Assembly: GCA_028534125.1 (NCBI GenBank)
Contig: CM052816.1
Location: 24,740,001 to 24,804,000, forward strand
DNA: 64,000 bases
Direction of reading: 5' to 3'
Source: Lama glama
Taxonomy: Eukaryota
In this document: positions 19,953 to 22,874 of the stretch, piece by piece
How the letters are laid out: each line of letters opens with the position of its first letter
Position numbering within the stretch: the stretch's first letter is position 1
Notes under the pieces: generated by a model
Seen by the model: the letters and a program-made list of their open reading frames with translations, nothing else
Told to the model about the DNA's origin: nothing
Databases searched by the model: none
Translations under genes and position numbers: made by a program

Positions 19953-22073
19953 GTACAAGTATTCATTTTCAATATTTAAAAAAATCACACCATTTATTCC
20001 TGCCATCAGGAAGCCAGAATATGGATTAGTGCATCTCTCTGAGTTTGCTTTCTACTTTAGGGCCATTCCTTCCCACCCTTCATTGTTGCCAGTTTCTTAA
20101 CAGCAGTTTATTGATTTTCTCAGGACCTTGCACTAGGTGTCCACTGCCTGTGATGGTGGAGCTCACATTTCCATTCAGCTTTCACAGCTTCTGTGACCTC
20201 ATTTTGTTTTGGTGTTCCAAAAGGTTTCCACTTATGCAAAAAAGAATCCCCTTGACCAGTTGGGAAGTCTTGCTGATACACTGGCCTCCCTCTGCCCATG
20301 TAACCTTCATGCATTTCCAAGGTCTTAGCTTTGCTCATTCTGTACTTTTACTTTTCCCATAAAGCTGAACGGCTCCTGTGTCCATCCAAATTCTCATCTG
20401 TTAACACACACCTCCTACTGGTTGTGCATGTATGATCTTCCTCATGATGAGATCCAGGTGTCAGTTTCTCAACTAAAATAGTTAATAAATTAAATGCTAT
20501 TGTATCAGAGTATATTTTGATCTAAAAACCAGAGCAGTTAGCCTTAAATCCAAATAGAAAAATGAATGAATAGGAAACGAAGGACAGGAGCTTAAGTAAA
20601 ACTGAAAAGAGACAAGTGGGAGATTCTTGAGAATGGTTGCTCTGGGAAGGAGATGGAAAGTATGTACTTTTCCCAAAACATCAGGGCTGACCAAGGTCTG
20701 TAGTTTCTTGAAATGAAGGATTCCCAGGGAATGCTCACCTGAGCTTGGCAACAGAGAGGTATGAGACATCTGTGAGTATTTATATTGGTCTTTAGTCATT
20801 CACCTTCCCACAATTCTTCCCTCCTCTCACCGTCAGGGTCCCAGTTCTATCTGCTGCAAGGAGAGAGAGCTGAAATTTTCAAATATGTCTAGAGCTGCTG
20901 GCTGGATTATCTATCGGGAAGGAGGGGAGGTGGAGTGTTGGGGAGGGGGGATGTATCATTGCATCGAAGCTTTGATTCCAGCTTTTTCCATATAGAAGCT
21001 TCATCCAACAAGCTATCCAGAAGCAGATAGTTTTCCATCTACCAACTTACACTATGCAAACTCATGAAAGGATAGATGTGTAAATCAGAATGTTGGCTTA
21101 TTCACTGACAGTGATGGGTATTCCTTTCCAGGGACCAGAATGCATCCATTTCTAGGTCCCCTAGAAACCAGGAAATCTGAAGAGGGACTGGGGGTTGCCT
21201 TGTGAGCATGGTATCAGAACAAAGGGCAGTAGGCCATTTGAGGAGTACTTCCCTTAGTCTGGAGAAAAATCTGTGAGCTGTTACTACCCTGCAAAAGAGA
21301 ATGAGTAGTGTTAATGTGAAGAGATGAGCTGAAACATGTGTCCCCTCCCCTATAAGAATCAGAGAAGACCAGTTTGGCTTGCAGAACGTTTGATGATGAA
21401 ACTCCGGGGAGGGGTCAAGGGGAAGTCATAATAAGGCCATGAAGTGTTACTTTTCAAAGAAATGAGTACAGCTGATGTTAATAGGAGTAATAGGAATTTC
21501 CAATGGAAGCAGGGGAGCTTATGTTTATAATAGAATTTTTTGTGTGTGTGGTGCTGAAATGGTTTTGATTTTAGATCCTCTGGGAGAAGCAGCTGCAGCT
21601 TCTTCCTTCCATGGACCAAGCTAGATATTCCTTAATTTCAGTAGAGTTTCACTAACTCAACAAAGCAACAAAAGCCACTGCAGTTCATAGCCTGAAGAGG
21701 TAGGATTCCAAGACAGAAGGCAGAGAAGGACACTGATGCAGAGACCAGGGACGGATTCTGAGGCAAGGAGGGGTGGGTGGATGCTCCTGGTCATAGCATT
21801 GCAGGGGGTGGGTCAAAGTTTGTGGGAAGGAAAGAAGGAGCAGAGGGACAGAGAATGAGCATGGCACAAGTGCAGTCCATGGCTTTGAATGGTTCCGGGA
21901 GCATCTGTGTTGGATGGAAAAGCTGAGCCCTAGAGGTCTGCCCTGGTTGGTTTAAGGGAGAAGAGTTGCTGACCAGAGGCAAATGCCCAGTTTCCCCTAC
22001 TACCCAAACCATCCCCCAGTGAACTCTGTATGACTTCAGAATAGTCATTGAAAGTCTTTCCTTTGAGATAGTT

Positions 22074-22102
22074 CCGAATCCTAACCACTAGACCACCAGG
22101 GA
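22074..22102 (-). pseudogene. Tailless retropseudogene of the 5' part of tRNA-Glu(CTC)
   Basis: Minus strand TCCCTGGTGGTCTAGTGGTTAGGATTCGG equals nt 1-29 of mammalian tRNA-Glu-CTC as I recall it; flanked by perfect 21-bp direct repeats at 22048-22068 and 22108-22128. Confidence 0.85.
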
Positions 22103-22874
22103 GCATGTTGAAAGTCTTTCCTTTGAGAACCATTTAAGCTTTCATCCAAGTCTAGACCATGTTTGCTGTAGGGAAAGTTTGATAAGACTGTAGCTAAACA
22201 GTAGAAGATCTTTCTCAGCTGGAAACCCCAATTCAAATCCAAATTGGCTTAAATAGGGAATTTATTGATTTATATAATACAAATACCCATTGGTGTCAAG
22301 TGTGACTTGAGGGCGGCCAAATCTCTCACCAGAACCCAGTATCCTGTCCTCTTTGGGTTCTTCTTCCCTCTGTGTTGCCTGAACAAGGGATCCCTCAGAG
22401 GTCCAAGTTCACATTCACCCTATTTCAAGTGCTGGGGAAAAATGTACTACTTCCTGACACTGCATAGCAGGTTCTGGGGTTCTATCTTTGGGGCCATGCC
22501 TGGTCACCAGGCTTACCCTAAACAATCACAGATGAAGGGAGATTTGGCTCTCAGATTGGACTTGCTTCACTGGTAACAGATGGGCCGAGTGTGGGGAAGG
22601 ATGGCTTCCCAAGGGAAGTCAGAATGAGGAGTGTATGCAGGGCAGGAGGAAACATCAATAGCCAGCACACTCCTCTCCAGAGACATGGGGAGTTAGCAGC
22701 CTCACCCTCAGTGTGGATTACCCGGCACAAGACTCTTCTAGCTGCAGAATAGACAGACCTGGAGAGTCATTAAAATCTAGCTCTCCAAATTCTCCCTCCC
22801 TACAGAATTTCTGGGAACAAATTCTGATGGGTCAAGAAAAAGTTGACAACAAAGTTTACATAATTACTTTAGTT

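Follow-up and report, generated by a model that had tools for sequence, protein, structure and literature searches.

A tailless tRNA-Glu(CTC) fragment between perfect 21-bp direct repeats in the llama genome, and the nick from which it may have been primed

Introduction

A 64,000-nucleotide stretch of the llama genome (Lama glama, assembly GCA_028534125.1, contig CM052816.1, positions 24,740,001 to 24,804,000; hereafter the window) contains a short segment in which part of a tRNA lies between two perfect direct repeats. The locus raises the question of how such a fragment entered the chromosome, and in particular from which of two staggered nicks its copy was primed. A sequence-only reading had described it as a young, tailless retropseudogene of a 5' tRNA-Glu(CTC) half, primed by microhomology with the anticodon loop and related to the tRNA halves of sperm. 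The window as a whole is mammal-like in character, having a CpG observed/expected ratio of 0.18 and containing L1 pieces and an endogenous retrovirus (ERV). Published studies are cited here from the available portions of their texts.

Structure of the insertion

The two 21-nt repeats are identical, cannot be extended on either side, and enclose 39 nt (Table 1). Read on the minus strand, the 39 nt consist of CATGC, 29 tRNA-like nucleotides and AACTA, in that order, and no A-tail is present. This arrangement had been reported in the sequence-only reading, together with the retention of one CpG and the identity of TCTCA, at the minus-strand start of the repeat, with anticodon-loop sequence; direct sequence comparison bore out all three observations. 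None of 100 windows simulated under a first-order Markov model gave a 21-nt repeat within 100 nt, and we infer that the repeats are a target-site duplication. The flanks have no similar copy within the window that could serve as a repeat paralogue for deriving the empty site.

Table 1 Features of the tRNA-Glu(CTC)-derived insertion (positions in the window)
Feature	Position	Strand	Remark
Direct repeat copy 1 (putative target-site duplication)	22048..22068	+	21 bp seen; 19 bp if the nick is at TT/GAAA
TCTCA, equal to tRNA-Glu(CTC) nt 33-37 (anticodon loop)	22064..22068	-	Likely priming microhomology
5-nt junction AACTA, between the repeat and the 3' end of the tRNA fragment	22069..22073	-	
tRNA-Glu(CTC) nt 1-29, from the mature 5' base into the anticodon stem	22074..22102	-	29/29 identical
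5-nt junction CATGC, preceding the tRNA 5' end	22103..22107	-	Candidate pre-tRNA leader or untemplated
Direct repeat copy 2	22108..22128	+	Same sequence as copy 1
TT/GAAA, at the repeat end facing the tRNA 5' end	22108..22113	+	Same motif at 22048-22053

Identity of the donor

Exact matches to the 29-mer were obtained at 23 metagenome loci, against 0 matches in viral contigs. ARAGORN called a tRNA in 18 of the 23 loci (17 as tRNA-Glu(CTC), one with an undetermined anticodon) and none in the other 5, the gene start coinciding with the start of the 29-mer match or lying at most one base off, and CGCTCTCA follows directly after the 29-mer in 21 of the 23. On sequence grounds, these calls and this continuation identify the insert as nt 1-29 of tRNA-Glu(CTC), ending within the 5' strand of the anticodon stem, whose limits are placed by standard tRNA structure. 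The probability of a 29-nt match by chance is about 3e-11, and the donor named in the sequence-only reading is upheld. Its description as a "5' half" holds only as far as the tRNA 5' part is concerned: the fragment of 29 nt stops in the anticodon stem and is not a loop-cut half. Neither Rfam nor ARAGORN called the fragment itself, as is expected of a sequence only 29 nt long; Rfam gave no hit at gathering level in the window and 5 chance-level hits locally.

A match of 29/29 cannot be bettered by the head of a short interspersed element (SINE), and a search of the 64-kb window with up to 9 mismatches allowed revealed no further copy of the fragment. A tRNA-Glu-derived SINE was rejected on this single-copy occurrence and on the presence of only 5 bases after nt 29, with no body or tail. 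Look-alike windows numbered 0 in the other genomes searched. The 5-nt segment CATGC was compared with 17 distinct, non-orthologous tRNA leaders from other species, among which the best match was 4/5, reached in 2 of the 17 (P=0.23).

Two further arrangements were seen among the metagenome loci. Contig OFFX01005053.1 (locus L011:283-319) holds a solitary 5' half of tRNA-Glu(CTC) that covers nt 1-36 and stops at the anticodon; it has no flanking direct repeat and is bracketed by 10-nt inverted arms 38 nt apart, and may have arisen by natural insertion or as a chimera of the assembly. In loci L008 and L019, whose flanks are the same, the tRNA-Glu(CTC) has an internal T-arm deletion and is not called by ARAGORN.

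Authenticity and age

The locus was checked against sequencing runs using 159 sampled 31-mers out of the 1521 words covering positions 21300-22850. Among the 24 best-holding runs listed, 18 contained every sampled word (score 1.00). They come from 6 studies under 3 coded organism labels, and 14 of them, but not the other 4, carried a flag marking them as reads from which the assembly may have been built. The remaining 6 runs, four at 0.00 and two not indexed, were not counted as evidence. Of the 1521 words, 69 are absent from the predicted empty allele, none of them lying wholly within the tRNA, and about 7 of these are expected in the sample, so that a run carrying the empty allele only would be expected to score about 0.955. 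Since all 18 runs contain every sampled word, the insertion is not an assembly artefact; it is real and shared, and a listing of best holders is silent on fixation.

With 0 changes in 71 site-branches, the age is bounded at about 21 My (95%) at an assumed rate of 2e-9 per site per year, or at 14-42 My across rates of 1-3e-9, all of them assumed and not measured. The insertion had been called young; what stands of this is an upper bound of about 20 My (14-42 My depending on the assumed rate), and nothing tighter than that.

Signals at the junctions

A match of at least 5 bases beginning at tRNA nt 30-38 is found at 0.65% of window positions (P=0.0065). With TCTCA counted in, the element would end at A37. 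Five foreign bases, AACTA, replace the CGC expected between the tRNA match and TCTCA; when AACTA was read as tRNA nt 30-34 in the ungapped register, 2 of the 5 bases matched (chance 0.37), and this alignment was rejected. The TCTCA match plausibly fits priming within the anticodon loop, as had been proposed before: the low background of the match and the agreement of A37 with the modal length of human copies speak for it, and the five foreign bases that break the junction speak against it.

The only L1-endonuclease-like site, TT/GAAA, is one transition away from the L1 endonuclease consensus TT/AAAA and sits opposite the priming end, toward the tRNA 5' base. Sites of the type TT/RAAA have a background of 1.65% at that far end (P=0.0165) and of 3.3% for either end. 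At the priming end no TT/RAAA-type hexamer is present, offsets 0-5 giving 5-6 of 9 positions of TT/WAAAAWW. The TCTCA-type and TT/RAAA-type signals occur jointly at 14 of 126,900 window positions. The motif definitions behind these frequencies were picked after the site had been viewed.

Comparison with described classes of insertion

Tailless retropseudogenes of therian mammals are described in PMC5322556 (Noll et al. 2015), and the insert agrees with the main screening criteria given in the available text of that paper. It derives from a small RNA and is 5'-complete: its first nucleotide is the mature +1 base, and the 5 nt between this base and the repeat are within the limit of 20 nt from the 5' duplication. 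It contains 29 of the 72 tRNA nucleotides and no A-run, where a 3' truncation of at least 10 nt and no oligo(A) are specified, and its duplication of 21 nt at 100% identity, separated by a 5-nt gap, lies within the range of 8-35 nt, at least 70% identity and at most 15 nt from the 3' end. The paper also applies a 30-nt screening filter, for which the insert measures 29 nt by two scoring schemes and 36 or 38 nt by two others, one of which used the match and gap values of the paper. Members of the class are truncated in a loop, with 2-18 nt of terminal complementarity to the target; the insert has a 5-nt loop match (nt 33-37), but five foreign bases part it from an exact match that ends in the stem. 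The target TT/WAAAAWW at the priming end, which in that paper is a population logo and no membership filter, is matched at 5-6 of 9 positions; this mismatch counts against first-strand priming and not against class membership. In length and junction the insert is borderline for the class, and the assignment made in the sequence-only reading is supported.

In being 5'-complete and 3'-truncated, in lacking oligo(A), and in its perfect duplication, GluCTC donor and loop match to A37, the llama insert resembles the members described in the available text, whereas it differs from them in the exact match of 29 nt ending in the stem, in the five foreign bases at the priming junction, and in the placing of its endonuclease-like site, with TT/GAAA at the far end and nothing resembling TT/WAAAAWW where priming would have begun. 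The same source lists 16 human GluCTC tailless copies of 34-42 nt, of which 8 measure 37 nt and 12 measure 36-38 nt. According to PMC2912911, the microhomologies on the 3' side of tailless tRNA copies are similar to those on the 5' side of inverted L1s. The llama insert is a real, ordinary member of the described class, with a mildly unusual junction.

A second comparison is offered by human tRNA/L1 chimeras (PMC13174262, supplementary file 3), in which the tRNA is antisense to L1 in 16 of 21 cases, among them a Glu 2-36 and a Gly 1-28 fragment, and for which twin priming has been invoked (PMC13174262; preprint 10.1101/2025.02.02.635956). In our reading, the Gly 1-28 chimera has a 19-bp duplication ending in TGAGA and a TT/AAAT site; these are printed one row lower and were assigned to it by coordinates. 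In antisense U5/L1 chimeras the endonuclease consensus is visible only from the L1 side (PMC4476161). The llama insert shares with such tRNA/L1 and U5/L1 chimeras a small-RNA 5' part antisense to an endonuclease site (here TT/GAAA; P=0.0165, or 0.033 for either end), a single duplication and a microhomology at the top-strand junction, and chimera lengths reach down to 1-28. Unlike them, as far as they are described in the available texts, it has no L1, SVA or poly(A) partner, and only 5-7 nt without an A-tail stand at the first-strand position. By analogy, the insert may be said to work like a twin-primed chimera, and it is not a member of that group.

Class 2 templated sequence insertion polymorphisms (PMC5110952) resemble the insert in being short, distantly templated patches with untemplated junction bases and no poly(A). 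They are described without duplications in the available text, in which the word "tRNA" occurs 0 times, and the perfect 21-bp repeat rules out assignment of the llama insert to this class.

Proposed mechanism and alternatives

The insert is probably a LINE-1-made tailless retrocopy of tRNA-Glu, whichever nick was used. For the more specific proposal that the copy was primed by LINE-1 ORF2p from the second, top-strand nick in a single event, we consider the chances about even. Under the established model of target-primed reverse transcription (TPRT), a duplication of such length reflects a staggered pair of nicks, and the 3' overhang at each of them is able to prime. If the endonuclease-type nick lay on the minus strand, the tRNA would have been copied from the plus-strand TGAGA overhang, that is, from the second nick. 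The L1 endonuclease would have cut at TTTC/AA on the minus strand, and another nick 19-21 nt away would have left two 3' overhangs. The plus-strand overhang ending in TGAGA may then have paired with UCUCA of the anticodon loop (nt 33-37) in a tRNA-Glu(CTC) template, which could have been intact, a precursor or a 5' half. Reverse transcription would have had an imprecise start at the base of the anticodon stem, leaving five non-matching bases, which is the weakest step, and would have continued faithfully from G29 to +1. Five further bases, from a leader or untemplated, would have followed before joining to the endonuclease-cut side, presumably with no first-strand L1 or poly(A) product, and fill-in would have yielded the duplication.

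This route is favoured by the 29/29 identity from the mature +1 base, by a duplication within 8-35 nt, and by TCTCA together with the far-end TT/GAAA. The antisense tRNA/L1 and U5/L1 chimeras described above are precedents for priming from the top strand. Against it, TCTCA is split from the tRNA match by five bases that fit neither register, an endonuclease-like site arises by chance at either end in 3.3% at what is a single locus, and a nick at TT/GAAA requires a repeat 2 nt longer than the nick implies. The twin-primed precedents in the available literature all contain a partner, whether L1 or another sequence. Solo snRNA copies that are 3'-truncated display the endonuclease consensus at the priming end, which likewise counts against top-strand priming.

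The reverse geometry is that of classical tailless retroposition, in which ORF2p would nick the plus strand at a non-consensus site beside TGAGA and prime the first strand in the anticodon loop, the TT/GAAA at the far end being coincidental. It is the published mechanism for the tailless class, a CUCUCA loop forces a target that is not A-rich, and the endpoint A37 agrees with the human GluCTC set. It is weakened by the L1-endonuclease-like site at the opposite end, overlooked in the sequence-only reading, since the priming end has no such hexamer and the far end does; the five foreign bases are as unexplained here as under priming from the second nick. We regard classical priming as possible, if rather doubtful. 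A break repaired without the L1 endonuclease would dispense with both nicks: end joining would patch a staggered break with a free 29-nt piece of the tRNA 5' part, or with a cDNA of it, untemplated bases would be added at each junction, and TCTCA would be present by chance. The five foreign bases at both junctions are features of end joining (PMC5110952), the exact match terminates at nt 29, and human sperm is rich in 5' fragments of GluCTC (PMC6932762). Repair of this kind is nevertheless unlikely, as it would have to treat both motif matches (P=0.0065 and P=0.0165) as chance, the class 2 insertions in the available text of PMC5110952 are without duplications, and the junction bases are not significantly templated by the flanks. 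In the search for local, polymerase-theta-style templating in windows of 30-100 nt, the best candidates were ATAGT (P 0.22-0.35) and AACATG (P 0.13-0.35), and both were rejected.

Both junctions would be explained together by a variant donor, a tRNA-Glu-derived locus or SINE head reading CATGC, nt 1-29 and AACTA and copied by retroposition or DNA capture, and tRNA-Glu-related SINEs do occur in artiodactyls. No such donor was seen, however: AACTA after or CATGC before the 29-mer was found in 0 of the 23 metagenome loci (none known to be from the llama), the window holds no second copy at up to 9 mismatches, and a survey of camelid repeats, in its available text, finds MIRs to be nearly all of the SINEs (PMC8605555), so that this origin is very improbable. 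Least credible of all is an ordinary tailless copy of nt 1-37 in which nt 30-32 were altered after insertion. These positions include a fast-mutating CpG; as independent later substitutions, three changes in five bases with none in 71 other site-branches have a probability of at most 3e-5, a figure that does not cover a single complex event.

Returning to priming from the second nick, a variant without a partner may be imagined in which L1 cuts the target and loses its own RNA, and the top-strand overhang captures a free, cleaved, sperm-type 5' tRNA-Glu fragment; we hold this to be unlikely. If it were true, tailless elements would include a hidden subclass of solo second-strand captures, which could be told by the "wrong" position of the endonuclease site and whose 3' ends would preserve a record of the tRNA fragments of the germline. 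Second-strand geometry without an L1 or similar partner was not found in the open-licence literature. The junction alignments of tRNA copies by Schmitz et al. (2004) may already include similar cases.

Template, function and significance

Whether the template of tailless copies is intact and internally primed (PMC5322556) or consists of pre-cleaved halves (PMC13174262) is disputed in print. The available text of PMC5322556 favours internal priming on intact RNA over capture of cleaved fragments, arguing from 5S and U2. The abundance of GluCTC 5' fragments in human sperm, reported in PMC6932762, agrees with that part of the link to sperm tRNA halves proposed in the sequence-only reading; the link itself is not implied by it, and the internal-priming argument runs the other way. 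The insert touches both this debate and that over which nick primes, and a single locus, both of whose junctions are unexplained, does not suffice to decide either.

Since the 3' half with the B box is missing, the fragment cannot form a tRNA, and the insert is most likely a dead, neutral fossil. No gene was recognised at the insertion site; the long reading frames scanned belong to repeats. Hundreds of tailless tRNA copies have already been described, the human GluCTC set among them (PMC5322556), and the insert is usable as a presence/absence marker.

Surrounding sequence

About 60 nt to the right of the insertion, at approximately 22190-22450, lies what we take to be the start of an old MaLR (MLT1-type) LTR. 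A short and broken gammaretrovirus-type ERV of about 4.8 kb occupies 40839-45651 on the minus strand; its LTRs (40839-41275 and 45209-45651) are 95.9% identical over 443 columns, and its coding remnants comprise a Gag_p30 split across two frames, a zinc knuckle, a C-terminal remnant of integrase and an env tail. This ERV is 19 kb distant from the insert; the idea that a primer-binding site for tRNA-Glu connects the two was rejected, the best such site in the window still having 5 mismatches of 18. The leader region of the ERV (44791-44939) contains a repeat spaced 94 nt, with 37 nt exact. Elsewhere in the window, a tandem duplication of 75 nt at 10360-10509 is 98.7% identical, and a pair of direct repeats of about 160 nt (25323-25479 and 26674-26833), 1.35 kb apart and 82% identical, may represent an old duplication or an LTR pair.
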